The position numbers and the translations under genes are program-made. 64,000 nt of DNA, from assembly GCA_040755155.1 (NCBI GenBank), contig JBFMBP010000084.1, positions 405-64,404 on the forward strand, read 5' to 3'. The notes beneath the pieces were generated by a model that ran no database searches, was not told where the DNA came from, and worked only from the letters and a program-made list of their open reading frames with translations. The stretch's first letter is position 1; each line of letters opens with the position of its first letter. Positions 12,471 through 63,382 of the stretch are shown here, in pieces. This DNA comes from Candidatus Omnitrophota bacterium (GTDB lineage Bacteria > Hinthialibacterota > Hinthialibacteria > Hinthialibacterales > Hinthialibacteraceae).

Positions 12471-12676
12471 AAGGTTAGCGCTTATGCCGCCGATTCCCCT
12501 CGCAGGGAATTTCATTGAATCCGTCGAAAAAAAGCCTGTCATGGGTTTTTATTTTCCAAACATCTAATACTATATTAGATATATAGAAATCGATTCGTTT
12601 TTTCCCCCTACGTTGCCGTTCCTGCAAGCCATGCGTTAGCGTAGTGCGCGATTGGAATATTATAAGAGGTAGTCCC

Positions 12677-36935: not shown

Positions 36936-37772
36936 TTAATCGAAGGGATCGGCGCGGGCGACGAGGGGAGCGTTATCCAATGCATAAAGGTTCGGAACCG
37001 GTTCCTGGCGCTCTTGTTCTTGGACGAGTTTATGGTATTTGCTCATAATCTTCGCATAATACCGTCTCGGCATGGCTCCCCCTTCTTTCACCCTTTTGTC
37101 GTAGATTACCGGGCCGAGATTATAGGCGTAGACGGCTTTTTCCAAACTTTTGTATTGCAGCATCAATTTGGTAAGATACAGCGCGCCGAGAGTAATATTG
37201 CCCTCGATTTCGCGATAATGGGGGAGATCGGCGGCTTCGATTTTTTCTTCTCCTACGATGGCGGGCGATTCGCGGACTTGCCGAGTAAGAGCGCGTCCGG
37301 TGCTGGGCATAAGCTGCATCAGGCCATGCGCTCCCTTGCTGGATTCTACGCTGGGACGAAGAGAGGATTCCGTGGACATCAACGCCAATAAGAACATGGG
37401 ATGATAGCCGTATTTTTGGCTGACTTCGTCCACCTCTTTGGCGATTTTGCGTTTGTCGTTTTCGGGCAATTCCGCCTTGCTCAGCTCCTGAATGGCGTCG
37501 AGAATTTCGACGCGCCGCTTTAACTGATCGATTTCCTGGCGGTTTTGCTGCAGGAGGATATCCCGTTCCTTGATTTGATTCTGCAAAAAGATTTTTACCC
37601 GGCGTTCTTTTTCCACTTCATTATCTTTTTTCATGATCCAAAAAACGGAGCCGCCGGCGCCCGCCGTCATGGTGAGGAAAATGAAAATAAGAAAAAAGAA
37701 GGGGATAGGAATAGCGCCGCGTTTGACGATTTCTCTTTTATCCTCATATCGGCGTAACTTTATGAGTTTCAT
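36936..37772 (-). CDS. membrane-anchored lytic transglycosylase (SLT domain) with a coiled-coil
   Basis: N-terminal TM, coiled-coil, then SLT motif ESS...GAHGLMQLMPSTG...AYNLGP. Confidence 0.85.
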   Translation of the reverse strand: MKLIKLRRYEDKREIVKRGAIPIPFFFLIFIFLTMTAGAGGSVFWIMKKDNEVEKERRVKIFLQNQIKERDILLQQNRQEIDQLKRRVEILDAIQELSKAELPENDKRKIAKEVDEVSQKYGYHPMFLLALMSTESSLRPSVESSKGAHGLMQLMPSTGRALTRQVRESPAIVGEEKIEAADLPHYREIEGNITLGALYLTKLMLQYKSLEKAVYAYNLGPVIYDKRVKEGGAMPRRYYAKIMSKYHKLVQEQERQEPVPNLYALDNAPLVARADPFD

Positions 37773-38418
37773 AGCCCATCTCCTTGATTCCTATAAAAAC
37801 GTAAGAGCGGTTTACCTCATACCGTTTCGTTTGGGGGGCGCTCGAAGCAGCTGTTCGATTATCAGCTTCTTTGAGCCATCTCTCAGAATGCGAAAAAATT
37901 TGAGAACCGCTCTATTGAATGGACCGAATTCCTGTTTATAGTAAAATTAAAGCAATTATCGATCCATCTATAATTTATTTTTACAAAAAAATTAGAATTA
38001 TCAATTATCGCGACTTTCATCTCCATTAATGGCCTGCGAAATGCCGTCTTATATAACGATAATCTAACTTTCCTTGTAACGATAACGCAAATTGAAAATT
38101 TGTCAGATAAAATTCCCTTTCTTGCTTGTGGAGCCGTAGGCGATAAGCGGCGATGGAAGAGAAAATTACAACTCGGCGGGATGCCCTCGCCCTCTCAAAG
38201 GAATGGAAGAAATAAATAACAGTTCGGTTACAGGCGAAACGCCTGTTCTACCAGTGTTTCGAACGATCTTACGTTTACTAATCCTCCTCAATCGTTCTCA
38301 ATGCGTCTACGAAGAGTATAACGAACTAATCGCTATAATCCAAGCGCAACAAGACGCTCTCTTCTGCGCCCTTGAAGCGAAGAAGCGTTGAAACCAAGTT
38401 GGAAGGACAAAAAAACGA

Positions 38419-39030
38419 TTACGGCTTTTTAGCCGTTCTAGCGGTTTCGTGGCTTTTCAACGTCTCGAAATCGGCGATCCTCCAAGCGCCGTCTTCGAAA
38501 ATCAGATCGTATTGACGTTGAAGGCTGAGATTTTTATCCGGCATTTTATGGTTTTCGAAGCAATAGACCGATGTTTTGTTTCCATGCGTCTGAGCGGAGG
38601 TGATTTCGGAGATTTGCTTGTATAGCGGACCGACGGAATGGCGGTCCTGATATTTCTTCATCCTCTGCAAAACATATTCGTGGACATTGTCGGCCTTTCG
38701 CTTATGCACGGGGAAGCAGCGGGCGAGACAAAAATATTCCGTCTCGAAATCTTGCTTGTTCCAGGCGTCGACGAAGCAGCGGCAAACGTCTTCCGGACCT
38801 AAATTGCGGATGGCGTTTTTCTTCGCTTGGTGTTGCGCCTCGGTGATGGAGGAATCGCCCGCCATCGAGGTTCTTTTTTCCATTTTCCGGATTTGGTTGA
38901 CCTTGCGCAGCAAATGCTCGATCAGCTGGTCGTAGATCTCGCGTTCGCGCTGCGTCAAATGATTGGCGGAATAATACAGCATTTTTCCCAGCAGAGATAT
39001 CTGTTCTTCTTCGGAAAGAATATTGTCCAT
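38419..39030 (-). CDS. hypothetical protein
   Basis: 203-aa ORF downstream of the GspG-like gene. No motif recognised. Confidence 0.4.
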   Translation of the reverse strand: MDNILSEEEQISLLGKMLYYSANHLTQREREIYDQLIEHLLRKVNQIRKMEKRTSMAGDSSITEAQHQAKKNAIRNLGPEDVCRCFVDAWNKQDFETEYFCLARCFPVHKRKADNVHEYVLQRMKKYQDRHSVGPLYKQISEITSAQTHGNKTSVYCFENHKMPDKNLSLQRQYDLIFEDGAWRIADFETLKSHETARTAKKP

Positions 39031-39107
39031 GATTCACCGCCTCCCTCGGCGAACCGGCGAAAGCCGGCGGCCGATCATCATTCTTTCACGGGCAATGCCT
39101 TCCCGTT

Positions 39108-39533
39108 TCATTGCAATGGAAGGCGATATTCCACGTCGTCGGTCGTTCCTTTGATTTTGTCTTTGCCCGCGCTGGAAAGAATGACCGTCTTTCCCTCATA
39201 TTTTAAAGAATACTTGTTTCCGAAACGATCGCGGGCCGCATCCGAGCCTACGACGCCTCCGCTTTCCAGTTCCTCCATCGAATTGGGATACCTTCCATGA
39301 TCGATATAATACATCGAAATGCCTTTTTTAATCGTCGGAAAATTGAACGTATCGGATTTGTCCCGGATCTCGATATACCGGTTGACGTTGCTCAATCCTG
39401 TGGCGTCGTTGAGAAATTGATCCGCTTTTTCCGCTACCTTATTTTCCTTCATTTTCGTCGATACGACGCGGTAAACATTAGCGCCAAGGACGATCACAAC
39501 GAGAAGCGCTATCACTTTTGCTGCCGTTTTCAT
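39108..39533 (-). CDS. GspG-like pseudopilin-fold protein lacking a prepilin (GFTLIE) leader; has an ordinary N-terminal TM anchor instead
   Basis: C-terminal region ISMYYIDHGRYPNSMEELESGG...DRFGNKYSLKYEGKTVILSSAGKDKIKGTTDDV parallels GspG (LDMYKLDNHHYPTTEQGL...DPWG..Y.L..PG......SLGPDG...DDI). RBS gaggtgaag. Confidence 0.5.
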   Translation of the reverse strand: MKTAAKVIALLVVIVLGANVYRVVSTKMKENKVAEKADQFLNDATGLSNVNRYIEIRDKSDTFNFPTIKKGISMYYIDHGRYPNSMEELESGGVVGSDAARDRFGNKYSLKYEGKTVILSSAGKDKIKGTTDDVEYRLPLQ

Positions 39534-39918: not shown

Positions 39919-41190
39919 ATGAGAAAGATGTTTAGCGTTTTTATTATTGGGATGCTTTGCATCCTAACGGCTTCGGCTTCCTATGCGCAGATCGGCATCT
40001 TTTCCGCTAACGTGGATGTCGATAACGGTCAGCTGGGAGCCGAAGGGAGCGCTTCATACGATCCAGCGACGGATACGTATACCGTGAACGGAAGCGGCGC
40101 GGACGTATGGAACAACACCGGCAGCAATTTCCACTTTGTTTATCGCGAATGGACCGGCGATTTCGATTTACGCGCCGATGTGAGCGTTAGCGGCGGTTTG
40201 GAAACGCAAGCTTGGATCAAAGCCATGCTGTTTTGCGCCGAAGGGCTGGAAGGCTGGTCGAATTACGTGACCACCCGCGTTCGCCGCGACGGCCAGTACA
40301 GCACCCAATGGCGCGGCGGCGGAGAAGCCTCCGACGCCAGTACGGCCAGCGCTTTGCGCGTTACCGGTCTGAATCCGGCGCGTCAGCGTCTGGTTCGAAT
40401 CGGCAACACCTTCTCCACCTACTATTTACATGCAACTACGGGCGAATGGACGCTTATCGATTCCAATGAAGTGGCGCTATCGGAAACTGTTCTGGTTGGT
40501 TTTGGCGTCTGCTCCCATGACTTAGGTCAAATCGCGACGGGGACATTTTCGAAAGTGGCCTTAGGAGCTCCGATCGAAGGTCCCTTCGACCTGACCATCG
40601 ATGTCGACAACGGTCAGTTGGGCGCGGAAGGCGCCGCCGCTTACGACGCCGCCGCCGGCATATATACGATCGATGGCAGCGGCGCGGATGTTTGGAACAA
40701 CACCGGCAGCAACTTCCGTTTTGTGTACAAAGAGTGGAGCGGCGATTTCGAACTGACCGCCGATGTCGCGGTCGCCGGCGGCCTTGAAACGCAAGCCTGG
40801 ATTAAATCCATGCTCTATGCCGCCGAAAGCCTGGATGGTTGGGGCAACTATGTAGCCACCCGCGTCCGGCGCGACGGCCAGTACAGCACGCAGTGGCGCG
40901 GCGGCGGCGAAGCCTCCGATGCCAGCACCGCCAGCGCTCTTCGCGTATCTGGATTGAATCCCGCCCGTCAGCGCCTAACCCGCGTCGGCGACTCGTTCAC
41001 CACATCTTATTTGGACGCGGCTAGCGGCGCATGGAAAAATATCGATACAAACGTAGTCGTATTGCAGGATCCCATCTTTCTGGGATTGGGCGTTTGCTCC
41101 CACGATTTAGGCCAAATCGCAACGGGAACGTTCAGCAATATTGAATTGACCGGCGGAACCACAGACGCAAGCGATTGGCAACTGTATTAA
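39919..41190 (+). CDS. secreted protein made of two tandem ~190-aa beta-rich (jelly-roll/LamG-like) domains
   Basis: Signal peptide. Two units share about 80% aa identity (IDVDNGQLGAEG...GSGADVWNNTGSNF.FVY.EW.GDF...GVCSHDLGQIATGTFS). Strong RBS aaggggagg. Confidence 0.6.
   Translation: MRKMFSVFIIGMLCILTASASYAQIGIFSANVDVDNGQLGAEGSASYDPATDTYTVNGSGADVWNNTGSNFHFVYREWTGDFDLRADVSVSGGLETQAWIKAMLFCAEGLEGWSNYVTTRVRRDGQYSTQWRGGGEASDASTASALRVTGLNPARQRLVRIGNTFSTYYLHATTGEWTLIDSNEVALSETVLVGFGVCSHDLGQIATGTFSKVALGAPIEGPFDLTIDVDNGQLGAEGAAAYDAAAGIYTIDGSGADVWNNTGSNFRFVYKEWSGDFELTADVAVAGGLETQAWIKSMLYAAESLDGWGNYVATRVRRDGQYSTQWRGGGEASDASTASALRVSGLNPARQRLTRVGDSFTTSYLDAASGAWKNIDTNVVVLQDPIFLGLGVCSHDLGQIATGTFSNIELTGGTTDASDWQLY
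40015..41155 (+). repeat. intragenic tandem duplication (2 x ~570 bp, about 80% nt identity)
   Basis: Direct comparison of 40015-40565 with 40590-41155. Confidence 0.75.
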
Positions 41191-41258
41191 AAAAACAGCT
41201 CGTATTCATAGCAAATCGTTTGGCCAACATACAGCCGTTATTATCTCATTGGATAATT

Positions 41259-41303
41259 CCCCGTATTTCTCCCCACATTGAGGGAGAAATACGGGTTTTT
41301 TTA
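41259..41303 (+). terminator. rho-independent terminator
   Basis: 13-bp stem ccgtatttctccc / gggagaaatacgg with a 7-nt loop, followed by g + ttttttt. Confidence 0.7.
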
Positions 41304-41617
41304 TGTCCGATCCGATGCATTCATCTTTCCCTTAACGCCTGCCAAAGCAAGTAAAAAATGATAGTCGCCATTATTCGTTTTCAACGTATTGAATGGATAA
41401 AAAGGAAGCCGTTATACCATTAATCCCTCAGAAGATAAATGGTCTCGCTATAGATCCCAACCAGATTCATAAGCAAGAGGAAAAACAGGTTGCCATCTTT
41501 TCTTCATCGAAAAGATGGTAAAAACCTTGAAAAACGCTTTATTGGGGTATAATTAAAAAAGTTTACTTCCGCCACAACATAAAAAGTGCGTTTGATTATT
41601 CGTATTCTTTCCTGTAT

Positions 41618-41690
41618 GGGCCATTAGCTCAATTGGTAGAGCATCCGACTCTTAATCGGCAGGTTTCAGGTTCGATTCCTGAATGGCCCA
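41618..41690 (+). tRNA. tRNA-Lys (anticodon CTT)
   Basis: Manual fold: 7-bp acceptor GGGCCAT/ATGGCCC, D-arm GCTC-AATTGGTA-GAGC, anticodon loop CT-CTT-AA, T-arm TCAGG-TTCGATT-CCTGA, discriminator A. Confidence 0.9.
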
Positions 41691-42087
41691 TTTCCTTAAA
41701 CCCTCATTAATCAATTATTTATATTCTCCTTTCTGTCTGGAATTCTTCTCATAATAATTATCTATGCGCTAGATTTGCGTTAACCATTTTTCGTAAACGA
41801 ATTGAGAAGAAAAAGCATGCTCCCCCTTCAGAATTGGTCTTAAGGGACAGGAGGCAATTCCTGTTGGGCTATGCCCTCCTTGCATTGTCCCCTTTCCTCC
41901 GGCATGGCCTGGAGAAATTCAAGCCCAAAGAAAAGTCGGTTTCCACCTTATTTTTTCGTTTTTCTGTCTAGACAATGGAGGCCACTTAAATGATTCTCTC
42001 CATACTATATGTAATGGTTGTATAGTTATTGATATGAAATGGGAAAATGTTCGAAACAATGAATCTTTCATCGAGGAGCCTTTGGAA

Positions 42088-44001
42088 ATGTTCAAATCTT
42101 CAGCGGCATTTTTTCTTTTTTTCTTCATACGGATATGCGTCGTCATTGCTGTATTCGATCAGCCAGTCGCCGCAGAATCTTCTGACTCCGAGTTGCGCTT
42201 GGCGCATGATGGGAAGCCATTGTGCACCATTGTCACGTCGGAGAATCCCACTCCGGCGGCGCGCTTGGCGGCGTTAGAGTTTCAATTCCACATTATGAAG
42301 ATCACAGGGGCGGAACTGCCCATCCGAAGCGATAACGAGAAAGTCGAGGGAATACGGGTGCTTATCGGGGATAGTAAGGCCACGCGGGCGCTGGGGATTG
42401 AAAGAGCCTCTTTCGCTCCGCAGGAATATCTCATTGCCTTTCGACCGGACGCATTGATTCTTATCGGACGCGATTGGGAGGATACGGCGGCCAATCGGAG
42501 GGAATTCGGCCGTCCCATGAATTGCGGAGATACGCTGGAAGCTACTCGGCAGCGCATCGACTACTGGAAAACCGTGGGGTATCCGGAACGCAGCGCGGGC
42601 GAGATGGAACTTCCGGGCGTTTACGACGATCTGGGAACGTGTTACGCCGCTTATCACTTCATCGAACAATTTTGTAATGTTCGCTGGTATGGGCCAAACG
42701 AAATGAGCATCATTTTCCCCTCTCAACCAACGCTTACAGTTAGCGGAACCGATATTCGGCGGTCTCCGGCGCTTAAATATCGCGACGCCCTTTGGTCTGG
42801 CAATTGGCCGTTCATGAAAGGACAGTGGGGTCCAACAACGCAATCCGAGATTTATCTGTTTTGGCGGCGTCTTCGCCTTGGCGGCGAGAAATGGGCTGGA
42901 AACCACACCTTCCACCGCAGGACCATTCAAGCCGTATTCACCAATCCTGCTTATCAGGCGCAAGGACCTGGTCGAGGAACGCAACTCTGTTATAGCAATC
43001 CGTTGCTGGTCGAAGAAGTCGCGCAGATGGCGCGGGATTTCTTTGGCGGCAAAAAGAACGCGCCCGAAGGATGGAAAGCGGTAGGCGATTATTTTGCGAT
43101 CGTTCCGGACGACAATTCGAACTTCTGCCAATGCGACCCGTGCAAGGCTTTGCTGGCCTCAGGAAAGGACATGCATACCGGCCAGTTCAGCAGCGGCGAA
43201 GTCAGCAACTACTTCTTTTCCTTCGTAAACGCCGTCGCAAGGGAAGTGCGCAAAACCCATCCCGACAAATATATTGCCGCGCTCGCTTATTGGAATTACG
43301 CCTTGCCGCCTCGCGGCTTCGATATCGAACCCAACGTATCCGTGGCTCCCTGCCTTCATACTTGCCTCTACGCCATCCACCCCGAAATCCGCGAGAACGA
43401 CATGATGTTATACAAGGAATGGCTGCAAAAAGCCAAAGCGCCGATTTTCCTCTGGAACTACTACCATCATCCGATGGAGCCCGCCTTGATTGACAAATGG
43501 AAGTGTTTCCCGAACGTGATGGCGCATGAGACTGCGCGGACGATGCGGATGTTCATCCAAGACGGCGTCCGGGGGATTTTCGTGTGCGGCGAACAAGAGA
43601 TGCTGGAAGGTTATGTGATCGCCAAACTCTGGGACGATCCAGACCAGGATGTGGACGCCATGCTGCATGAGTTTTTCCTCCGCTATTTCGGCGCGGCTGC
43701 CGAGCCGATGGAGAATTTTTACCGTAAGCTTGAGGAGATTGCCTGCGATCCAAAGAACTATCCACCGCCCTATTACAAGCAAAATGGCATTGATTGGAAG
43801 AATGTCGCCTGGACGCGCCTGGGAATGGCGGAACGAATGAAAGAGCTGGGCGCACTGATGAACCAGGCCCAGACGCTTGCCCATACCGAACCGGAGAAGC
43901 AACGCATCGGCTTGTGGCGCGAGGCGTTATGGAAATGGATGGAAGAAGGCTGCGCTCAGTACGCCGCTGACGAATCGGCGCATTCCGATTTTAAAAAATA
44001 A
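42088..44001 (+). CDS. secreted hypothetical protein (possibly DUF4838/glycoside-hydrolase-like)
   Basis: Signal peptide MFKSSAAFFLFFFIRICVVIAVF. Large W/Y-rich soluble domain. Assignment by gestalt only. Confidence 0.35.
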   Translation: MFKSSAAFFLFFFIRICVVIAVFDQPVAAESSDSELRLAHDGKPLCTIVTSENPTPAARLAALEFQFHIMKITGAELPIRSDNEKVEGIRVLIGDSKATRALGIERASFAPQEYLIAFRPDALILIGRDWEDTAANRREFGRPMNCGDTLEATRQRIDYWKTVGYPERSAGEMELPGVYDDLGTCYAAYHFIEQFCNVRWYGPNEMSIIFPSQPTLTVSGTDIRRSPALKYRDALWSGNWPFMKGQWGPTTQSEIYLFWRRLRLGGEKWAGNHTFHRRTIQAVFTNPAYQAQGPGRGTQLCYSNPLLVEEVAQMARDFFGGKKNAPEGWKAVGDYFAIVPDDNSNFCQCDPCKALLASGKDMHTGQFSSGEVSNYFFSFVNAVAREVRKTHPDKYIAALAYWNYALPPRGFDIEPNVSVAPCLHTCLYAIHPEIRENDMMLYKEWLQKAKAPIFLWNYYHHPMEPALIDKWKCFPNVMAHETARTMRMFIQDGVRGIFVCGEQEMLEGYVIAKLWDDPDQDVDAMLHEFFLRYFGAAAEPMENFYRKLEEIACDPKNYPPPYYKQNGIDWKNVAWTRLGMAERMKELGALMNQAQTLAHTEPEKQRIGLWREALWKWMEEGCAQYAADESAHSDFKK

Positions 44002-54621: not shown

Positions 54622-56565
54622 ATGTTGACTTTTACGAATCCGCTCTTGTTATGGGCGTTTCCCGTTCTCGTTCTTCCTTGGATATTCCGCCGCCGGCGCG
54701 AGGAGCGGATATTGCATATCGATTTTCCCCTGCTTCGTTTTCTGCGCGAGTCGGAAGAGAAGGAGCGCGTCAATCCTTTCCTGCAGGAACTTTTGTTACT
54801 TCTTTTACGGACGATGTTATTGGCGATGCTGCTGCTCGCGCTGGCAGGTCCTAAATGGACAGTCGATGCTCCCGGACGAAAGAGTTTGTTTTCCTCATTG
54901 TTTTCTTTCGGGCGTATGTTTCAGTCTCACGTGCTGGTTTTAGATACTTCTTATAGCATGGGATATGGAACTGGGGAAACATCCTGGTTCCATCAAGCGC
55001 GCCAAGCTTGGGACCTTATAGAAAGAAATATTCGCGGCTTGTCGTTGGATCGCGTTCAATGGGATCGGACGACGGTTGCGCCGGATCGTTCTTCCCGCCT
55101 TTTCTCTCTCTCCTCCCGCGAGATAGAAACGTTGTTTCAATCTGCGCCTAGTGCGGAAGGAACGTCCGTTCCAGAATTGATGACGGCTTCCCAGCGATCC
55201 TTCGACGACGCTCATAGCATGATTCTCGTAACCGACGGCCAACGCCTGCCCTGGGCGCCGCTTTTGGATTCCTCGGTGGATTTCAAATTCCCCGCCTCTC
55301 TTCTCGCCGTTTCAGTAGGCGAGAAGCCTGTCGTCAATCGGTGGTGCGAAGTGAAGATGCTATCGTCTCCCCCATGGGGAATCGCCGGTTGGGAGACCAT
55401 CGCGGGACAAACGCGCTCGCTGGGCGGCGACGGCGTTTCTGGGACTGTTTCCATTATTCATGCGGAATCCGGCGATCCCGCCTATTCCGATGCGGTTTCG
55501 TTTCCCGCATCCCCGAACGCCGTTGCGGCGCTGCCTTTTCTTTTCACCTCTCGATTCTCCGATTTAATGGCGAGGGACGTCCAACGTAAGCGCCCCGATG
55601 TATTGAAATTTTCCATTAAGCTGGAACCGGCGGACCCGCTTCCCATCGATAACGAGATGACGTTGGAGGTTCCCGTAATTGAAAATTTCTCCCTAGCGAT
55701 TCTCTGCGACGCCGCCGTGGATTCCCCAGTTTTGTCCATTCTAACATCGGCTCTCAATCCGCTGGCCGGTTCGCCGCAATCGCCGCCGGTTCGTCTGGAA
55801 AACCTTAATCCGCCCCTTCGCGAAATCTCTGAGTCGGTCGATCTCGCCGTTATCGTTCCCAGCCTCGTATCTACCTGGTCGCCTTTGGAATCCACCGCTG
55901 CGATGGAATACATCAAAAACGGCGGCGCCGCCATTATTTTTACAATCGCATCCGAAATGGAGTTGGAATCCTGGAATCGCTTCTTGACGGAACTGGGATG
56001 GGTATGGAATCCAACGGAAGCGTCCGCCGCGCCGGAAGGCGTTGCCGTCTCCAGCGCAGGACTCTTGACACAATCACTGAAAGTTTGGGAAGAATCGATA
56101 TGGAAGCCTTGGCTGCCCAAGCGTCATGGAAACTTGAAAACGGGCGCTTCCCTCGTTTCCTACCGCCTGGGCGATCAAAGTTGCGGCTTAATCGCGGAAG
56201 CGTCATTGGGCAAGGGAAAATTCTGGTTGGTCAATACATCGCTCGCCCTCGATTCCGAAACGCTCCTATCCCCCGCGCTGCCTCCCTTCCTGTGGGAAAC
56301 GGCCAAAGAAGCGGCGCGGCTGAAAAAGCAATACGCGCTTACCCTCCCGGCGCCAAAACCGGAATCCAACCTCACCCTCCTGACGGATCAAGAAAAATCG
56401 CAATTGTCCGAACGGTACGGCGTTCAATTCACGGGAATGGAAACCCTGGAAAAGACGCTGAATAGCCGCTTCGGCGGAACCGACCTGCGAATGCTGCTCC
56501 TCTTCCTCTGCGTCCTGCTAGGCTTAACGGAATCCTGGCTCTCCAACCATTTGGCGTCGATATAG
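54622..56565 (+). CDS. BatA-like aerotolerance N-terminal double-TM domain protein with a vWA-like domain
   Basis: MLTFTNPLLLWAFPVLVLPWIFRRRRE is the characteristic BatA_N start. HVLVLDTSYSMGYGTG is a vWA MIDAS-like motif. C-terminal TM. Confidence 0.75.
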   Translation: MLTFTNPLLLWAFPVLVLPWIFRRRREERILHIDFPLLRFLRESEEKERVNPFLQELLLLLLRTMLLAMLLLALAGPKWTVDAPGRKSLFSSLFSFGRMFQSHVLVLDTSYSMGYGTGETSWFHQARQAWDLIERNIRGLSLDRVQWDRTTVAPDRSSRLFSLSSREIETLFQSAPSAEGTSVPELMTASQRSFDDAHSMILVTDGQRLPWAPLLDSSVDFKFPASLLAVSVGEKPVVNRWCEVKMLSSPPWGIAGWETIAGQTRSLGGDGVSGTVSIIHAESGDPAYSDAVSFPASPNAVAALPFLFTSRFSDLMARDVQRKRPDVLKFSIKLEPADPLPIDNEMTLEVPVIENFSLAILCDAAVDSPVLSILTSALNPLAGSPQSPPVRLENLNPPLREISESVDLAVIVPSLVSTWSPLESTAAMEYIKNGGAAIIFTIASEMELESWNRFLTELGWVWNPTEASAAPEGVAVSSAGLLTQSLKVWEESIWKPWLPKRHGNLKTGASLVSYRLGDQSCGLIAEASLGKGKFWLVNTSLALDSETLLSPALPPFLWETAKEAARLKKQYALTLPAPKPESNLTLLTDQEKSQLSERYGVQFTGMETLEKTLNSRFGGTDLRMLLLFLCVLLGLTESWLSNHLASI

Positions 56566-56670
56566 AGGGGAATTTCGACGAGAAACGATTATCGCGCCAT
56601 AGTTCCTTTACCAATCAACTGATATTCTGCTATTCTTTAGAGTGAAGACGATAATAAAGGAGTTTATTCC

Positions 56671-56913
56671 ATGAGTGAATTGGTGCTTCACGACGTGGAC
56701 GAAAGTATTCTGGATCGTTTAAACCAAACCGCTTCATCGCATGGAGTCTCGATAGAGGAAGAGGCGAAAAATATTTTAAATAACCATCTTTTCGCTTCCA
56801 AATCAAAAGAAAACGCTCTTGCGAAAACGCGCGCCATTCGCCGCCGCACCGCTGGACGGACTCATACAAGCGGAGTTCAGATTAAACGGGAAATCTACGA
56901 GAAAACATCCTAA
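56671..56913 (+). CDS. vapB: ribbon-helix-helix antitoxin (FitA/VapB-like)
   Basis: LHDVDESILDRLNQTASSHGVSIEEEAKNIL is an Arc/MetJ-type RHH. Immediately upstream of the PIN gene. Confidence 0.75.
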   Translation: MSELVLHDVDESILDRLNQTASSHGVSIEEEAKNILNNHLFASKSKENALAKTRAIRRRTAGRTHTSGVQIKREIYEKTS

Positions 56914-56939
56914 AGATTAGCCAAATCCATATTGAGATT

Positions 56940-57362
56940 ATGCTCATAATCGTCGATGCTTGCGTCGTTATAAAATGGTTCTTTGAAGAAGAAATGAATG
57001 AGGAGGCGGATCGTCTTCTCTCTGGCGATTATACGGTGAGCGCGCCTTATTTTCTGCTCTTGGAATTTTCCAATTTCCTTCTTAGAAAGCGCCGCAAGGG
57101 CGAACTCTCCGATAAAGAAGCACGCGAGGTTCAGATGACAGTTCTCGATTGCATCGATATATTTCATTCCACAGATCAACTTATCCCTAGAGCGAATCAA
57201 ATTTCCACTGAAATTAACCACTCGCCCTACGATTGTCTCTATTTGGCCGCCGCGGAATCTCAACGATCTTTCCTAATCACGGCCGATAGAGAATTGTATG
57301 ATCGGGTGAGGAATAGTCCTTATCGCAACATTATCGCATGGATTGAATATCCAGTTTTATAA
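56940..57362 (+). CDS. vapC: PIN-domain toxin VapC
   Basis: MLIIVDACVVIKWF and C-terminal LYLAAAE...ITADREL acidic residues. Confidence 0.8.
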   Translation: MLIIVDACVVIKWFFEEEMNEEADRLLSGDYTVSAPYFLLLEFSNFLLRKRRKGELSDKEAREVQMTVLDCIDIFHSTDQLIPRANQISTEINHSPYDCLYLAAAESQRSFLITADRELYDRVRNSPYRNIIAWIEYPVL

Positions 57363-57544
57363 GATTAATTATGGGTTCATTAATCAAGAAAAAAAGTATT
57401 ATTAAATTGCAATGAAGCTATTCAAGCAACTCAAAAAATATTCCCATTAAATACGCATAAGGATCATTTATCATCATTTTAAAAGAGAATCGTAAAGAGA
57501 TCGGAAATGAAACACGAAGGGCATAAATATTAAGAGGATTTCCA

Positions 57545-58873
57545 ATGGCTTCTCTTACGAATATGCAAGATTTACGGACTATTCTAGGCCATCTGAACGC
57601 GGAAAAACCTGCGGGGCTAGGACTGAAAGATGGAGAAACGGCGCGTCAGGAACGAGGCGGCGATTTTTTGCGCAGATTGAATCTCGAACTAGAAAGCCGT
57701 CAGGGAAAAGCGCGGGTGCTTGTTACAGGACAAATTGGGGTTGGGAAGTCTACCGAATTATTACACTTTTTTCATAACCACGGTGGAATAAAAAAAACTG
57801 GTTATTGGATTTTCTGTAATTTAGAAAAAGATGAACATCCGGAACGATGCGGCGCAACAGGAGTTTTTCTTACAATTTTAAGAGATTGTTGGGGGGCAAC
57901 ACGAAATTTACGTAATAAAGCTGATCTACCACAAAGGGACAAAAAAGAATATCTTCAGTTACGGGATGAAATATTGAAAAGATTAATCGATTGGCTAAAA
58001 GGTGAGATCATTGAAGATGACGCAACAGCAATTTTTCGTTTTGGAAACATGGATTTTCCTGTATTTCTTGAAGAAAAGGGACAAGCATTAGCTCTTATAT
58101 TAGGGAAAGCCTCTCAGCATGAAGCTGTTTCTCAACGTTCGGAACAATTCGGATTAGTTCCTGACTCTTTAGTAAATTTATTAAATAAATTACTAATATG
58201 GATAAAGAATGCATGGTATGAACGTCCACCTGTTTTAATTGTCGATCATGTAGATAAAATCCGTGATTCAACAGCCGCTAGCGAAGTTTTAAAAGAATCT
58301 ATTCCGCATTGGCAACGAATTGAAGCCTCCATCATCATGACGGCGCCTTATGAATATACGCTGGGAGAGATGCGCCATTCCGTCGAATCGTATTGGGGAA
58401 GGCCGTTGATGATTTATCCGCTAGAGATTCCCGAATTGGATGAGAGCGACATTCCTTCCATTTATCATGATATACTCAAGAGTTGCGGATTGTATACGCT
58501 CATCACGACGGATAGTTTAAGATTACTGGCTCATTATAGCGGGGGAATACCTCGTTCCTTCGTCCAGTTTTTGATAGAAGCCAGTAAAGAAGCGCATTTG
58601 TCAGGGCATAAAAGAATTGAAACTTCCGATGCGCAGGCAATTATATACAATGCGGAAAGAGCGTATCAGGATTATGGTCCAACTCAAATGGATTTATTGG
58701 ATCAGATTACGCAAAATAAAATCGGATTAAATCAATCGGCGTATCTTTTGCGATCCCCGATTGGGCTGCTGGTATTGGAAGCTAAAGAGGGAGTGCAACC
58801 CTTACGTGTTCATCCATTGGCTCAAAAAATGCTGGAACGCTATCGGATGAATCCGATGAAAAGCGCAATATAA
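57545..58873 (+). CDS. AAA+ ATPase (Orc1/Cdc6/AAA_16-like) with a probable C-terminal winged helix; first gene of a low-GC three-gene operon
   Basis: Walker A GQIGVGKST; Walker B PPVLIVDHVD; sensor-1 IIMTAP; sensor-2/lid GGIPRSF...ASKEAHLSGHKRIETSDAQA. Local GC about 42% versus about 56% background. Confidence 0.7.
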   Translation: MASLTNMQDLRTILGHLNAEKPAGLGLKDGETARQERGGDFLRRLNLELESRQGKARVLVTGQIGVGKSTELLHFFHNHGGIKKTGYWIFCNLEKDEHPERCGATGVFLTILRDCWGATRNLRNKADLPQRDKKEYLQLRDEILKRLIDWLKGEIIEDDATAIFRFGNMDFPVFLEEKGQALALILGKASQHEAVSQRSEQFGLVPDSLVNLLNKLLIWIKNAWYERPPVLIVDHVDKIRDSTAASEVLKESIPHWQRIEASIIMTAPYEYTLGEMRHSVESYWGRPLMIYPLEIPELDESDIPSIYHDILKSCGLYTLITTDSLRLLAHYSGGIPRSFVQFLIEASKEAHLSGHKRIETSDAQAIIYNAERAYQDYGPTQMDLLDQITQNKIGLNQSAYLLRSPIGLLVLEAKEGVQPLRVHPLAQKMLERYRMNPMKSAI

Positions 58874-58874
58874 T

Positions 58875-59477
58875 ATGTCTACCGCCGAACAATTCGCCCA
58901 ATCCATCCTGTTAGAAAATCGCGGCGTTCATGTCCTGCTTTGGAGCGATCAAGACGATCTCTATCGAGCTTTGATCGTCATTCTTTCCGTCCTGAAAGAC
59001 CAGCCGGTTTATCCCTTGCTGCTTACTTCTACAAATGAATCCATTTCAAAACTTAGAAGCTTATTCGAGATAAAACAACCGCCGCAAGAAATCGATGGGG
59101 AGACAGACGAATCCCTGCTGCCTGCAAGAAAAGACCTTTTGATATTCTTTATTCAACAAGCGACAAGTAAAATGATCGGACCATGGTTGAATGGATGGCG
59201 GAGCCAAATAGCCTCTTCCCCTGGAACCCTCTTAGTGATTCGTCACGCCGATTTTATGGACTTTCAAAGAGAGGCGCCCGATTTAGCGTCCTTTTTCGGT
59301 TCGAAAAATCAGGATTCCGCTTCTATGTTATCGCTCTGGAATAAAGAAACCGCCCAAAATATCAAAATAAATTTACCGAAAGAACTTCATGATATTCTCA
59401 TAAAACTACCAGGAGAACTCCCTTCCAAGAAAGAAATTGAATTTTGGATAAAACAACATCCTCCTATTGACGCATAG
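58875..59477 (+). CDS. hypothetical protein, operon partner 2 of the AAA+ ATPase
   Basis: Start 1 nt after the ATPase stop. Low GC. No motif recognised. Confidence 0.6.
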   Translation: MSTAEQFAQSILLENRGVHVLLWSDQDDLYRALIVILSVLKDQPVYPLLLTSTNESISKLRSLFEIKQPPQEIDGETDESLLPARKDLLIFFIQQATSKMIGPWLNGWRSQIASSPGTLLVIRHADFMDFQREAPDLASFFGSKNQDSASMLSLWNKETAQNIKINLPKELHDILIKLPGELPSKKEIEFWIKQHPPIDA

Positions 59478-59486
59478 ATTCTTGCT

Positions 59487-60158
59487 ATGAATAGTTTACC
59501 TTTTAAGGAAATTCAAAATTTATTTTTGAAATGTTTGAAAGAGGCGAATATTTTTGATCGTCCCGATTCCGATGGCAGGTTATTCGAAGCGGAAGACATT
59601 ACAAAAGATAATAAAAGATGGTTAGCGGTTGCGGCAGGAGTCAATAAAAAAGAAGCAAGCGAGCTATTCTTCGGAAATAAATCGCGCGCCGTCAAAGCGG
59701 AGTATCCAATCCGCTTCCATCGATCCGGCGAAATCCGAATGTTATTTATCGTTCGTCCCTTCGATAGCGATTTATCCAAAGTTCAACCCTTATCATTAAT
59801 AATGCCTTTCGCGAAAACCATTCCATGGTTGGAAGTACGTCAAGCCTATCTTAGAGTTTCGAATTTACCTCAAAATGATAAAAATATCGATAATATTCGT
59901 TGGGAGTGGGATTGCAATTACTTCAGAGAAAAGCCGCAAGAATTTTGGCTCAAAGGTTGGTTCGATGAATTAGGTTTTAATCCATCCCACTCGCCATCTC
60001 ATCTTCATTTTAATTCGAATAAATCAATCCAAAATAATCCATCGAGCATCCGTGATGGCGATTTAGCGGATGATTTGCGCCTTGCCATAGGAAATCCCAA
60101 TCCTCTCGCTTTTATTATTTCGCTTGCCTTATGGATAAAGACTTTGCAAGTACGATAA
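59487..60158 (+). CDS. hypothetical protein, operon partner 3 of the AAA+ ATPase
   Basis: 9-bp gap from the previous gene. Low GC. No motif recognised. Confidence 0.6.
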   Translation: MNSLPFKEIQNLFLKCLKEANIFDRPDSDGRLFEAEDITKDNKRWLAVAAGVNKKEASELFFGNKSRAVKAEYPIRFHRSGEIRMLFIVRPFDSDLSKVQPLSLIMPFAKTIPWLEVRQAYLRVSNLPQNDKNIDNIRWEWDCNYFREKPQEFWLKGWFDELGFNPSHSPSHLHFNSNKSIQNNPSSIRDGDLADDLRLAIGNPNPLAFIISLALWIKTLQVR

Positions 60159-60172
60159 AATAATTTGAGTTA

Positions 60173-62020
60173 ATGAATCTCATGCCACCATCCTTCCCCC
60201 CCCGCGATCTTAAATTCATAACCGTCTTGTTAGCCATCCTCTTTCTGTTCGCGCCGCTTTTTCCTCAATTGTCCACTCCCCAGTTCGCCTATTTCTTTCG
60301 TTCCGTCATTGATCTTTTGATTGTCGTTGCTTTCTGCCGGTTGGGATTGGTTTCGGCGATGGCTCGAATTCTGCTATTCCCTATATCGATCCCTGCTCTT
60401 GCGGGATTGGCTTGGCTGTTCTTGGAATTGATGCAAACGCCTGACTTGTATCGCGCCAAAGGCAAGTGCATGGTTTTATTAACGGTGTGGATGTTGTTCG
60501 TCCTGATGCGTCTGATTCCCATAACGAATGCTTCGCGGCGCTGGCTTTGTCTTTGTCTCGCGTTGGGCGGCGTTCTCGCCGCTTTGCATGGGCTTTATTT
60601 GCAATGGACGGGCTTCGGCGAATTTATCGACGTTATGAAAGAAAACGCTCTCTATGACGACGCTATGCGCAAGGAACTCATCGTCTCGCTGGAAGCCAAC
60701 CGCGCTTTGGGGCGCTTCGGCAATCCCAATCACCTGGCGGGGTATCTTGCGCTCTCGCTCTGGCCGTTCTGGTTCCTTTGGAAAGAAGAGCGCGCCGCCT
60801 GGCCGCGCCGCTTGCTGCCCGTGATGGCGCTTCCCATCTTGATTTGTCTTTACCGAACCTATTCCCGCAGCGGGCTGCTGGCTTTGCTCGCGGCGATGCT
60901 TTTCGTTTTTCTTTATGAATTGATCGAGCGAGGTTACGGTCCCCGGCTCATGCGTTGGGCTTGGATCGCTGGCGGATTATGTCTTGCGGGGATCGTCGCG
61001 GCGGGATTGCTGGGATGGTTCATGGCGCAGGGAATTATCCCCTCGCCGCCGCCGTCGCTTTTCGGTGGACGGCTATTGACGATATCGACGGTGGAAGCGC
61101 GGATGGATTTCTATCGCGGCGCTTTGGCGATTATCAAGCAAAATCCCTGGCTGGGCGTGGGGCCGGAAGGATTCGAATCTTACTACTGTTCCTTTATACG
61201 TCCCGGTGACCGCGAATCCCGTTATGTACATAATTTCCTGTTGGAAGCGGGCGTCGAGGGCGGCGCCATCGGTTTTTTCCTTGTCTCATGGCTACTTTTC
61301 GCCGTGATCCGATACTTGCGCCGCGCTTGGCAAAACTATCCGCATGAACGCGCCGTCATCTTCTCCGCCGCCGGTTGCTTTGGGACGCTCGTTTTTCTCT
61401 CTCTGTTGGATTTTCACAATAATCTTATGGAATTCTGGATTGCTCCCGTCTTTTTTTTGGGTTTGGCTTCTCGCAATTCTATTGCAGCGCCGCCGCCGGA
61501 GCGCTCACTGCGCTGGATGGGGATTGGATTCTGCGCGGTTCTGGCGTTGTCGTGGACGTTTTGGGGATTCTGCCGTTATTTCAACGAGATCGACCGCGAC
61601 AAAGGGTATTATCTGGTTGTCGACCATCAGCCCGCCGCCGCCCAACAGGCTTATGAACGCGCTGTTCTGTTTGATCGGACGGACGCCGATTCCTGGCGCA
61701 GTCTAAGCCTGATTTGGGCGGAAATCCCCGAACGAGACGCCCAATTGCGCCGATTATCCTATATAAAAACCGCCGTCCGCTGGGCGCCGCGCCGCGCTTT
61801 GATCCGTTCCGATTACGCTGCAGCTCTCTTTGCGCTAGGATATTCCGAGCAAGCGCTGCGCGAAATCGAAATTGCGCAGCGTTTGTTTCCCGCCCGGCCC
61901 AAGTATTATGAAATCATGGCGGATTTTTACCGCCTCCTCGGCCAGCCGGAGCAAGCGGCGCAAGAAAAGCAAAAAGCCGAGGCCATCCAAAAAGAGATAG
62001 AAGCGCGATATCCGTCATGA
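60173..62020 (+). CDS. O-antigen ligase (Wzy_C/RfaL) family membrane protein with a C-terminal TPR region
   Basis: About 11 TMs. Wzy_C motifs RTYSRSGLLALLAAMLF and GVGPEGFESYY...HNFLLEAGVEGGAIG. TPR-like helical tail. Confidence 0.8.
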   Translation: MNLMPPSFPPRDLKFITVLLAILFLFAPLFPQLSTPQFAYFFRSVIDLLIVVAFCRLGLVSAMARILLFPISIPALAGLAWLFLELMQTPDLYRAKGKCMVLLTVWMLFVLMRLIPITNASRRWLCLCLALGGVLAALHGLYLQWTGFGEFIDVMKENALYDDAMRKELIVSLEANRALGRFGNPNHLAGYLALSLWPFWFLWKEERAAWPRRLLPVMALPILICLYRTYSRSGLLALLAAMLFVFLYELIERGYGPRLMRWAWIAGGLCLAGIVAAGLLGWFMAQGIIPSPPPSLFGGRLLTISTVEARMDFYRGALAIIKQNPWLGVGPEGFESYYCSFIRPGDRESRYVHNFLLEAGVEGGAIGFFLVSWLLFAVIRYLRRAWQNYPHERAVIFSAAGCFGTLVFLSLLDFHNNLMEFWIAPVFFLGLASRNSIAAPPPERSLRWMGIGFCAVLALSWTFWGFCRYFNEIDRDKGYYLVVDHQPAAAQQAYERAVLFDRTDADSWRSLSLIWAEIPERDAQLRRLSYIKTAVRWAPRRALIRSDYAAALFALGYSEQALREIEIAQRLFPARPKYYEIMADFYRLLGQPEQAAQEKQKAEAIQKEIEARYPS

Positions 62021-62922
62021 CCGCACAGACGTTAAATGCAATAAATCCAATAACTCATCCCCGCCGCCAAACCCGCCAAGTGCTGGTTCGCGGCGTTCCC
62101 ATCGGCGGCGGCGCTCCCATCGCCGTGCAAACGATGGTCAAAGTCCCCACCACGGATTACGGCGCCGTTATGCGCGAAATTGAAGCCTCCAACCGCATCG
62201 ATCCCCGCGACCTTCCCGACCGCGAACAGAATATCTTGCAGGACTTGCATTGCTGGGAAGATGCCTGCGCCTTGGCGCCTTTTCATAGCGACATCAACCG
62301 CGTCAGCATTCCCGACGAAGAATCCGCCGATAATCTGGAGCGCATCGTCAAGAATTCCCCTATCCCCATTGTCGCCGACATCCATTTCCGGCCTCCGATG
62401 GCCATCGCGGCGTTGGAAGCGGGCGTAGATAAACTGCGCATCAATCCCGGCAACATCCGCGATCCAAAATTGCTAAAAAAGCTGGCCCGCGAAGCCATCG
62501 ACCGGGGCAAGCCCATGCGCGTTGGGGTCAACGCCGGTTCGCTCGATAAAAGTCTGCGAGAGCAATACGGCGATCATTCCGCCGAAGCCCTGGCCATCAG
62601 CGCTGCCCAATCCGTCCAGCTCATGGCTGAGGAAGGCGTGCGCGGCATCGTGGTTTCGCTCAAAGCCAACGACGCCCGCTGGACCATTGACGCTTATCGC
62701 CTGTTCGCCCAAAAGAACGACTACCCGCTTCATCTCGGCGTGACGGAAGCGGGCTGCGGACGCGCCGCCGTCGTTAATTCATGGGCGGGAATCGGTTCGC
62801 TTTTGCAGTTGGGAATCGGCGATACGATCCGCATCTCCCTTACGGAAGATTCTCGTCTGGAGGTAATCGTCGGCCATCTGCTTCTCCACTACCTCGGCCT
62901 GCCGCGCCATCCGTTTTCATAA
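62017..62922 (+). CDS. ispG: IspG/GcpE (HMBPP synthase) TIM-barrel domain only; the C-terminal 4Fe-4S-binding domain is absent (truncated or pseudogene)
   Basis: Collinear with E. coli IspG through GIGDTIRISL...LGL, then a stop just before the expected CPxC cluster motif. ATGA overlap with the upstream gene. Confidence 0.8.
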   Translation: MTAQTLNAINPITHPRRQTRQVLVRGVPIGGGAPIAVQTMVKVPTTDYGAVMREIEASNRIDPRDLPDREQNILQDLHCWEDACALAPFHSDINRVSIPDEESADNLERIVKNSPIPIVADIHFRPPMAIAALEAGVDKLRINPGNIRDPKLLKKLAREAIDRGKPMRVGVNAGSLDKSLREQYGDHSAEALAISAAQSVQLMAEEGVRGIVVSLKANDARWTIDAYRLFAQKNDYPLHLGVTEAGCGRAAVVNSWAGIGSLLQLGIGDTIRISLTEDSRLEVIVGHLLLHYLGLPRHPFS

Positions 62923-62998: not shown

Positions 62999-63358
62999 AA
63001 GGGGGGAGGAGGCGATCGCGAGCGGATTTATTCCGTTCGAGGAAAGTCCGGACTCCACAGAGCAGGACGCTGGGTAACGCCCAGGAGGGGAAACCCTACG
63101 GAAAGCGCCACAGAAAACATACCGCCCGCTTCGTCGGGTAAGGGTGAAAAGGCAGGGTAAGAGCCTACCGCGGTTCCGGGCGACCGGACCGGCATGGCAA
63201 GCCCCGTCCGGAGCAATGTCAAATAGGAGAGGAGGAGCGGCTCGCTCCGCCCCGCGTCATAGCGGGAAACTCTTGGGTAGGCAGCTGGAGGCCGTCAGCA
63301 ATGACGGTCCTAGAGTAATGATCGCCCGCGACAGAATCCGGCTTATACCTCCCCCCTT
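62999..63358 (+). ncRNA. rnpB: RNase P RNA, bacterial type A
   Basis: Conserved blocks GAGGAAAGTCCGG, GGTAACGCC...GAAACC, AAGGGTGAAA, GGGTAAGAGCC, ACAGAATCCGGCTTA. P1 pairing ggggggagg / cctcccccc. Confidence 0.9.
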
Positions 63359-63382
63359 TTTCTGCCGCCCCTAAGAAAACAA

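Follow-up and report, generated by a model that had tools for sequence, protein, structure and literature searches.

The 64,000-nt stretch of DNA analysed here (the window) contained a 3.6-kb AT-rich block in an Omnitrophota genome, and the block raised the questions of where it came from, whether its genes make up one system or more, and what role these genes may have. It was bordered by two plus-strand host genes: (i) a gene for a BatA-N-domain membrane protein (54622..56565; Pfam BatA, 46.2 bits) on the left, outside the island, and (ii) a gene for an O-antigen-ligase-like (Wzy_C) plus TPR membrane protein (60173..62020; Pfam) on the right, in agreement with the flanks named in the original prediction. 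Between them, five ORFs were found on the plus strand just where they had been predicted, in the order vapB–vapC–A–B–C, with gaps of 1 nt between A and B and 9 nt between B and C. The low GC content had been read in the right direction, but its figures needed correction: the island had 40.5% GC (not 42–45%) and the remaining window 51% (not 56%), with 54–55% in the two adjoining genes; the island z score was −5.1, the lowest value relative to all other 3571-nt windows. GC3 was 0.336, 0.423, and 0.362 in A, B, and C and 0.444 and 0.447 in vapB and vapC, versus 0.56–0.68 in the neighbouring genes.

Orthologues of the BatA-like gene were 48% identical in locus L031 and 53% identical in locus L030. 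In L031, a relative, the site was empty, its O-antigen-ligase-like orthologue (47% identical) beginning 3 nt past the BatA-like gene. L029, the closest relative (A 80% identical), had the 3′ end of a BatA-like gene directly upstream of A and carried A–B–C at the identical junction, with a 138-nt spacer and without VapBC. This BatA-to-A spacer was partly alignable at the DNA level with the spacer 3′ of the BatA-like gene in the window (56566..56670); DNA comparison of L029 with the AT-rich 182-nt spacer from vapC to A (57363..57544) showed conservation limited to its final ~14 nt (GAGGATTTCCAATG), which comprise the ribosome-binding site and the start. Given the z score of −5.1, the GC3 drop, the empty site in L031, and the L029 site filled by A–B–C alone, the AT-rich block is foreign DNA, as had been supposed. 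Its borders displayed only chance-level 12–17-mers as direct or inverted repeats, no terminal repeats, and no integrase; no tRNA or other RNA gene lay inside or beside it, no island promoter or terminator scored above chance, and no above-chance sigma-70 match was present on the plus strand of 57363..57544.

Gene A (57545..58873, plus strand; 442 aa) was assigned from motifs, Pfam, and a homologue alignment as a putative AAA_16-type (STAND/ORC-Cdc6-like) P-loop NTPase. The motifs foreseen for it were all present, and GQIGVGKS, DHVDKIR, T266-A267-P268, and G333-G334-x-x-R337 varied little or not at all across 28 homologues: (i) Walker A was G62-Q-I-G-V-G-K-S69, invariant; (ii) Walker B was D234-H-V-D237-K-I-R240, with D234 and D237 invariant in both branches of the family and the residue after the Walker B aspartate being His in the main branch and Asp in branch 2, not Glu; (iii) the sensor-1 region was T266-A-P268; and (iv) a putative helical lid carried G333-G-I-P-R337, with G334 and R337 invariant in both branches, as would fit a sensor-2/GxP-type motif. 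A conserved stretch of approximately 160 residues lay between Walker A and Walker B, and the conserved C-terminal ~70 aa were presumed to form a winged helix. Judged from its sequence, A has the full set of nucleotide-binding motifs of an AAA_16/STAND/ORC-type NTPase. The label Orc1/Cdc6-like stood as a clade-level resemblance but went too far as a family assignment: A of the window scored 28.5 bits against AAA_16, under the gathering cutoff of 32.6; AAA_16 was matched by 28/28 homologues at E ≤ 0.01 (best 6.7e-9), with no curated family above cutoff; the NCBIfam Sll1717, PEP-CTERM ATPase, and Hda models all scored far below cutoff; and A profiles (28 and 16 sequences) gave P-loop-level matches alone in the PDB (E > 0.02), with no ORC/Cdc6 relative. 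No sensor-repeat (TPR/WD40/LRR) or effector domain was matched by A, placing it outside STAND in the strict sense, and branch 2 lacked the STAND-like VHPL histidine. True membership of A in Orc1/Cdc6 or STAND was rejected on this last point together with the absence of a PDB relative, the sub-cutoff AAA_16 score, and the lack of sensor repeats.

Genes B and C had been described as free of recognisable motifs, and neither had a match in Pfam, NCBIfam, or PADLOC; B nevertheless turned out to be a Walker-less AAA+ fold. Gene B (58875..59477, plus strand; 200 aa) displayed an AAA+ alpha/beta core with fold matches to ORC2/Cdc6, RdrA, and Avs5 STAND modules, and it retained a C-terminal helical bundle; profile search of PDB sequences gave no match. 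The GxxxxGK[ST] signature was missing, the P-loop position being W-x-D-Q-x-D-L and the Walker B position h-h-h-h-Q-Q-A, and the residues invariant in both branches were L105-N-G107-x-R109, R123, and P135-D136. B is a catalytically dead AAA+ fold, with its ATP site destroyed but with R109 and R123 as invariant arginines. Descent of B from A as a degenerate duplicate was rejected: profile–profile comparison showed no similarity (probability 0.3%).

Gene C (59487..60158, plus strand; 223 aa) encoded an alpha+beta protein in which the residues invariant in both branches were R138, an acidic residue at 140, N165-P166-x-H168, H172-x-H174-x-N176, R198, G202, P206, and W216. The invariant His3/Arg2/acid cluster sits on predicted adjacent strands. 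The structure model of C, built from 8 sequences, had no detectable structural relative; sequence searches of Pfam, NCBIfam, PADLOC, and PDB profiles were also empty, and no effector domain was recognisable. A catalytic role for C was guessed from residue chemistry only.

The three genes were contiguous and in identical order in every locus with enough sequence, genome contigs and metagenome contexts alike, including four members of the deep second branch, which bears out the predicted conservation of the trio as a unit. No fourth conserved ORF, a small ORF upstream of A included, was found across the cassette loci. The genes were translationally close-packed, the dN/dS values of the trio (0.11–0.19; 0.14 for A) indicated purifying selection, and A was 50–80% identical across phyla. 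The cassette was sparse and patchy (22 loci among genomes of 185,579 species), the A tree mixed host taxa and was incongruent with host taxonomy, the flanks were unrelated between loci, and wherever 1 kb or more of flank was present on each side, the cassette GC content lay 2–12 points under that of the flanks. A–B–C forms an operon of three genes that stands by itself and spreads horizontally, and we are highly confident that it is a genuine and novel system of three components, acquired by horizontal transfer. No mobility vehicle was identified: the cassette was not found in sequenced plasmids, phages, or viral contigs, and no transposase, integrase, replicase, or partition gene was conserved beside it (20 to ~25 loci).

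In Pfam, NCBIfam, PADLOC, and PDB profiles, the trio matched neither a housekeeping complex nor any defence system with a name. With PADLOC-DB v2.0.0, A, B, and C had no match at E ≤ 1 and the branch-2 counterparts A′, B′, and C′ had none at E ≤ 0.001; no Pfam or NCBIfam defence model was matched by any component, and the trio was not described in the literature on Sll1717, Cdc6-like/AAA_16 proteins and defence, iSTAND, nSTAND/ternary systems, or Omnitrophota/Planctomycetes defence. On the points at which the original prediction had been open to refutation, a housekeeping match was absent, the unit was conserved, and the composition deviated when measured. A TA or defence gene was located within 9 kb of the cassette in six of the nine Pfam-annotated loci, a raw count with no control, and the phyla carrying the cassette are rich in TA genes. 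Counted in favour of a conflict role were the VapBC pair beside the trio in the window and three further neighbourhoods: (i) a complete AbiL system adjoining the cassette in L037; (ii) a Pycsar-type cNMP-binding patatin gene directly after C in L038; and (iii) MNT/HepT, AbiEii, PemK, and ParE around the cassette in L036. PADLOC 'PD-T4-6' matches near the cassette were dismissed as generic Ser/Thr kinases. Most immediate neighbours were housekeeping genes, and the 94 flanking ORFs contained 105 Pfam families, none occurring more than twice.

The comparison was also applied to known systems. In BREX, an active ORC/STAND-type ATPase is paired with an inactive STAND partner, for which the role of a regulatory sensor, linked to an effector, has been proposed (PMC12839542). 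BrxC (an ORC/Cdc6-type AAA+ with wHTH) with BrxB/BrxF likewise places an active ATPase gene beside a ~200-aa Walker-less AAA+ fold, but A and B matched no BrxB, BrxC, or other BREX model (PADLOC, NCBIfam), the cassette lacked PglX methylase, PglZ, and BrxL (PglX and PglZ were not conserved nearby either), BrxC has ~1200 aa versus 442 aa in A, BrxB has no helical bundle and evolves fast while B keeps its C-terminal bundle and is well conserved, and BREX has no counterpart of C. MoxR–vWA systems also combine an ATPase with an inactive STAND partner and are enriched in Planctomycetes, Cyanobacteria, and Deltaproteobacteria (PMC7159879). The MoxR–vWA–iSTAND ternary systems (Kaur, Burroughs, Iyer, Aravind 2020) share the three-part logic of AAA+ ATPase, inactive STAND-like NTPase, and output; the cassette differed in having an AAA_16-type rather than a MoxR ATPase, no vWA protein (Pfam on A, B, and C), and three small single-module proteins with no fused recognisable effector (e.g., peptidase or TIR). 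Compared to RADAR, the cassette had no RdrB deaminase, the PADLOC RdrA model was unmatched, and B resembled RdrA at fold level only. Avs and other AAA_16/ATPase_2 STAND defence NTPases shared only fold or clade likeness, A having no sensor repeats or fused effector and the PADLOC Avs models being unmatched. The clamp-loader gamma/delta/delta-prime assembly offered a mechanistic analogy only, with no sequence relationship, clamp, or replication context in the cassette, and Tn7-like and Mu-like transposition modules were set apart by their adjacent transposase (TnsB/TniA/MuA) and element ends, which did not recur at the cassette.

We propose that two independently acquired accessory modules, VapBC and A–B–C, were inserted where the BatA-like and O-antigen-ligase-like genes form a conserved junction. 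A and B would form a mixed AAA+ assembly in which A binds ATP as a switch and hydrolyses it slowly, as suggested by the His or Asp, in place of the usual catalytic Glu, after the Walker B aspartate. B, the dead partner, would act as regulator or sensor and may donate an arginine in trans, a step modelled on clamp-loader delta-prime and on the proposal for BrxB-type inactive STAND partners. C would be the output, either an enzyme (its residue chemistry would fit a site that cleaves phosphodiesters or binds nucleotides) or a trigger-binding subunit, and the most likely biological role of A–B–C would be that of a conflict/anti-invader (abortive-infection-type) system. The explanation as a whole (two separate modules, the A/B/C mechanism, and the conflict role) is about evenly balanced between being right and wrong, and a defence or conflict role for A–B–C, taken by itself, falls a little short of an even chance. 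Clearly more tentative, and rather unlikely in its full extent, is the view of A–B–C as a new immune-system family of Planctomycetota/Omnitrophota/Desulfobacterota, combining a minimal ATP-switch NTPase, pseudo-ATPase control, and an effector of unseen fold; the His3/Arg2/acid site of C would then be either a new catalytic scaffold (e.g., that of a phosphodiesterase or nuclease) or the receptor for a nucleotide signal, for which recurrent neighbours related to cyclic nucleotides could be a hint. If A–B–C works in immunity or conflict, it would be a compact, strictly conserved trio of active NTPase, dead-ATPase partner, and output with no known fold relative, from phyla whose defence biology has hardly been tested so far; it would provide a clean model for the role of inactive AAA+/STAND partners such as BrxB, because each function is on its own small protein, and C would become a candidate for a new fold among enzymes or receptors. 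The unusually high conservation of A, B, and C was counted against the defence reading; in many defence systems, sensors evolve fast.

The same conservation, together with the low dN/dS of A, B, and C, fits a machine with a fixed partner better than an arms-race sensor, and A–B–C might instead be a non-defence accessory ATPase machine (acting as chaperone/assembly factor or controlling a DNA or envelope transaction), horizontally acquired and kept for a physiological function peculiar to some lineages of the PVC group, Omnitrophota, and Desulfobacterota. Housekeeping genes in most flanks, a weak likeness of A to Hda and to ATPases of the PEP-CTERM/ExeA type, and the lack of a known effector domain in the trio are consistent with such a machine. 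However, a very sparse, patchy spread (22 of 185,579 species), an A tree incongruent with host taxonomy, a cassette GC content below that of the host at all loci, several loci beside bona fide defence or TA genes, and no recurring functionally linked neighbour all argue otherwise, and both this identity and this reason for its retention were judged unlikely. Should the role of A–B–C lie outside defence, B and C still represent two uncharacterised protein families, both marked by clear invariant residues. Still less probable is a selfish addiction-type module, or the leftover accessory part of a mobile element (e.g., a TnsC/TniB-, MuB-, or IstB-like ATPase for target selection or replication loading, plus helpers), giving no host benefit: transposase, integrase, replicase, and partition genes were not conserved alongside (20 to ~25 loci), terminal repeats were absent, plasmid, phage, and viral collections gave no cassette, the similarity to TnsC was no better than that to any other AAA+ protein, and several apparent frameshifts came from long-read MAGs and may be assembly errors.

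The two-module arrangement proposed above depends on the relation of the trio to vapB and vapC, and the alternative is that all five genes make up a single system in which VapBC regulates the ATPase module or serves as its effector. Adjacency, a common strand, and low GC content in the window link VapBC to A–B–C, but no other cassette locus has VapBC, L029 has A–B–C with just the 138-nt spacer, the 182-nt spacer between vapC and A is unconserved, and GC3 is somewhat different (0.44–0.45 in VapBC versus 0.34–0.42 in A–B–C); such a five-gene system is extremely improbable, and VapBC as part of the A–B–C system was rejected on the evidence of the VapBC-free loci, the L029 junction included. Since VapBC is missing elsewhere and L029 holds A–B–C alone, the island is not one unit, and the TA link, on which the picture of a trio riding with a toxin–antitoxin module had relied, is not a conserved property. 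The pair itself was recovered as predicted, both genes being on the plus strand and above Pfam cutoffs: (i) vapB (56671..56913; 80 aa), encoding an RHH antitoxin (FitA-like; PF22513, 31.4 bits, cutoff 27) and (ii) vapC (56940..57362; 140 aa), encoding a PIN-domain toxin (PF01850, 49.9 bits, cutoff 23.6). With the antitoxin first and a 26-nt gap, order and spacing were canonical, and VapC had the acidic residues typical of an active PIN domain (D6, E42, D98, and D116, picked by eye from the translation with no structural alignment). By these features, vapB–vapC is an ordinary type II VapBC toxin–antitoxin pair with nothing unusual, separate from the A–B–C system. The single BREX row for the window was a match of VapB to BrxE (E 0.081).

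The low-GC island of the window (positions 56600-60170) carried five plus-strand ORFs, all present where the original prediction had placed them: vapB (56671-56913; 80 aa) and vapC (56940-57362; 140 aa), which scored above the Pfam cutoffs for FitA-like RHH antitoxin and PIN domain, respectively, and then the cassette A (57545-58873; 442 aa), B (58875-59477; 200 aa), and C (59487-60158; 223 aa), with intergenic gaps of 1 nt (A-B) and 9 nt (B-C). The island was bordered on the left by a BatA N-terminal domain gene and on the right by a gene for Wzy_C O-antigen-ligase domain plus TPRs (both by Pfam), and the genes farther away (PPDK, RF-1, PrmC, and IspG) were all housekeeping ones. Gene B appeared in the public MAG annotation as a 168-aa protein (P0122, 84% coverage); the deposited start codon was probably set too far downstream, because the 200-aa reading opened with M-x-T-A-E, kept across 51 homologues.

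The island had a GC content of 40.5% versus 50.9% in the remainder of the window, and it was the GC minimum (z=-5.1 against 534 other equal-length windows: mean 0.509, sd 0.020); the predicted deviation was real and strong, with its figures (42-45% versus 56%) somewhat off. GC3 was 0.34-0.42 in A, B, and C, 0.44-0.45 in vapBC, and 0.56-0.68 in the surrounding genes. The cassette lay 2-12 GC points under its flanks in all loci where each flank reached 1 kb or more, for hosts at 45% GC as well as at 67%, and low GC was a property of the cassette family, beyond the insertion in the window alone.

Metagenome contig L031 contained the flank orthologues in window order, namely BatA-like (48% identity), ligase-like (47%), and IspG (77%), with only 3 nt between BatA-like and ligase-like genes, and it was an empty site for the island; composition and empty site together bore out the claim of foreign DNA. 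The closest cassette relative, locus L029 (its A 80% identical to that of the window), opened with the 3' end of the same BatA-like gene (LFLCVLIGLTESWLSNRLASL plus stop versus LFLCVLLGLTESWLSNHLASI plus stop in the window), and its A began 138 nt past this end without vapBC; therefore, A-B-C occupied this junction in two related genomes. The island was thus a composite insertion, with vapBC as a separate insertion (or lineage-specific retention) in the window's organism. vapBC was sought in the other cassette loci and found in none, the only exception being an unrelated PIN gene 2.5 kb off in L023; VapBC had been expected to accompany A-B-C, and it was instead unrelated baggage. No marking repeats, tRNA, or integrase were found at the island borders.

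A had about 160 database relatives (50-80% identity), and relatives of B were located on contigs carrying relatives of A. C appeared rare in word-indexed search, and exhaustive profile search gave only 54 representatives in 1.84 billion proteins; by direct inspection (22 loci from 185,579 species' genomes plus further metagenome contexts), a C orthologue followed B wherever the sequence of a locus extended far enough, so the three genes were contiguous there as the predicted conserved unit. The four most distant C relatives (L033, L035, L039, and L040) made up a deep second branch with the order ATPase, 150-200-aa protein, and C-like protein: (i) A' had 25% identity to A over the full length (E 2e-22), (ii) C' matched the C profile at 97.8% probability, and (iii) B' had in common with B only the core LNG[WF]R...V[IL]IR. 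No fourth conserved ORF was found in the cassette loci. The dN/dS values against L029 were 0.14, 0.19, and 0.11 for A, B, and C, all of which were under purifying selection.

Walker A (GQIGVGKS) was invariant among A homologues, and Walker B took the form D-[HD]-h-D-K-h-R about 160 conserved residues past it. Downstream of Walker B lay a T-A-P sensor-1 region, then a putative lid in which G334 and R337 were invariant, and finally ~70 conserved residues at the C-terminus, which may form a winged helix. AAA_16 was matched by 28/28 A homologues, with AAA_22, nSTAND5, and ATPase_2 weaker, and A of the window scored under the AAA_16 cutoff; the NCBIfam matches (Sll1717 family, PEP-CTERM/ExeA-type ATPases, and Hda) were all far sub-threshold, and A profiles found no relative in PDB beyond the P-loop. 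These scores point to A as its own family within the STAND/ORC-Cdc6 neighbourhood; as for the complete Orc1/Cdc6-like AAA+ module foreseen, the motifs of Walker A, Walker B, sensor-1, and the putative lid were confirmed in the sequence, and the Orc1/Cdc6 label held as a clade-level resemblance only.

B and C had been described as free of recognisable motifs, which held for C, for which no fold relative was found, and not for B, whose high-confidence model (pLDDT 89.8) showed the alpha/beta core of AAA+ proteins and a small bundle of helices. B contained neither P-loop nor Walker B acid and was for that reason a pseudo-ATPase; LNGxR109, R123 (sensor-1 position), and P135-D136 were invariant in both branches. 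Its origin as a recent copy of A was rejected by comparison of the two. C (pLDDT 81, pTM 0.80) was predicted as alpha+beta with a mainly antiparallel sheet, and its residues invariant in both branches (R138, acidic residue 140, N165-P-x-H168, H172-x-H174-x-N176, R198, and G202) fell on three predicted strands (136-141, 171-176, and 197-200) plus the loop preceding the second. Because these residues alternate along the strands, they would lie on one face of each, and the cluster looks like a putative active or ligand-binding site, whose three His, two Arg, one carboxylate, and one Asn would suit phosphodiester/nucleotide chemistry or a metal site.

Planctomycetota supplied most hosts, followed by Omnitrophota, Desulfobacterota, and Sumerlaeota, and a single host was an alphaproteobacterial MAG; collections of plasmid, phage, and viral sequences contained no copy of the cassette. 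In a neighbour-joining tree of A, built with no bootstrap, members of one family did not group together: two Gemmataceae lay in different clades, as did two Pirellulales and two Desulfobacterota, which suggests horizontal spread. A-B-C was very probably a real, undescribed, horizontally acquired three-gene system, and the predicted new cassette in foreign DNA stood, matching no named system.

A function in defence or conflict is put forward tentatively. VapBC adjoined the cassette in the window, a complete AbiL abortive-infection pair (AbiLi 7e-73, AbiLii 5e-20) did so in L037 (6257-8232, minus strand), and MNT/HepT, AbiEii, PemK, and ParE surrounded it in L036. In L038, an antitoxin gene lay just upstream, and 36 nt after C came a cNMP-binding (PycTIR-like, 1e-18) patatin phospholipase gene (11656-13455, plus strand), by its domains a Pycsar/CBASS-type effector, with no cyclase among the genes called in the ±9-kb locus. 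TA/defence-type genes occurred within 9 kb in six of the nine Pfam-annotated loci, an uncontrolled count in TA-rich phyla. The main rival, a non-defence accessory ATPase machine, is favoured by the unusually high conservation of A-B-C and the many housekeeping contexts around it. The flanks varied by locus, with 105 Pfam families over 94 neighbouring ORFs and none more than twice.

The most economical mechanism would be an NTP-dependent switch complex: A would bind ATP, and its cycle would be slow and switch-like, as no catalytic Glu follows Walker B; B would cap or regulate the A assembly, and C would be the output or trigger-binding subunit. Clamp-loader delta-prime contributes an arginine in trans, and B may do likewise. 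BREX (BrxC with BrxB/BrxF) and MoxR-vWA-iSTAND systems also pair an active ATPase (ORC/STAND-type in BREX) with an inactive STAND-like partner, as in A plus B, and this partner has been proposed as an effector-gating sensor (PMC12839542 and PMC7159879, respectively). All membership tests failed for these two, as for RADAR, STAND proper, Orc1/Cdc6, and Tn7-like modules, and A-B-C was hence filed as of the NTPase-centred conflict-system kind, outside every named family. B and C each represented a new protein family, set in a clean architecture open to experimental testing; the weight of the find was tempered by the restriction of this putative conflict system to uncultured lineages and by the many candidate systems already in the literature.

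A convergent MBL-fold (Lactamase_B) gene was located directly downstream of C in L001 (10634-11260), L027 (10648-11487), and L036 (12325-13293), all on the minus strand, and two of the three also matched the anti-Pycsar Apyc1 family; they had no detectable mutual similarity, and this recurrence, noticed post hoc, was superfamily-level only. Taken with the L038 patatin, they might point to some link with cyclic nucleotides, or the recurrence may be chance. In L033 (7603-12264), the branch-2 cassette was followed by genes for a pilin-like N_methyl protein, an N6/N4 DNA methylase, and a DUF2971 protein and by a 77-aa fragment of a phage integrase, and the locus could be a genomic island. Apparent frameshift splits or truncations affected A in L024 and L026 and C in L010, L014, L026, and L037, and C of L019 was shrunk to ~85 aa; these could reflect either an accessory module that is degenerating or indels introduced by long-read assembly of the MAGs.

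The ligase-like gene of the window started 14 nt past the C stop; its first ~20 codons were unalignable with the L031 orthologue (alignment from residue 19), its start region 60173-60400 was still low in GC (0.43), and its 5' end may have been remodelled by the insertion. Other low-GC patches (0.405-0.43, 1-kb windows) at 41001-42250 (with tRNA-Lys(CTT) inside at 41617-41691), 37501-39250, and 1-1000 may be small insertions or AT-rich intergenic regions. IspG/GcpE (62017-62922) had 301 aa only, and its Pfam match reached model position 250 of 343, with the C-terminal part (about 90 positions) missing; the L031 orthologue was of equal length, and IspG may be naturally short or split in this lineage. 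A class A bacterial RNase P RNA gene (63000-63361; 313.5 bits) began 78 nt after IspG.
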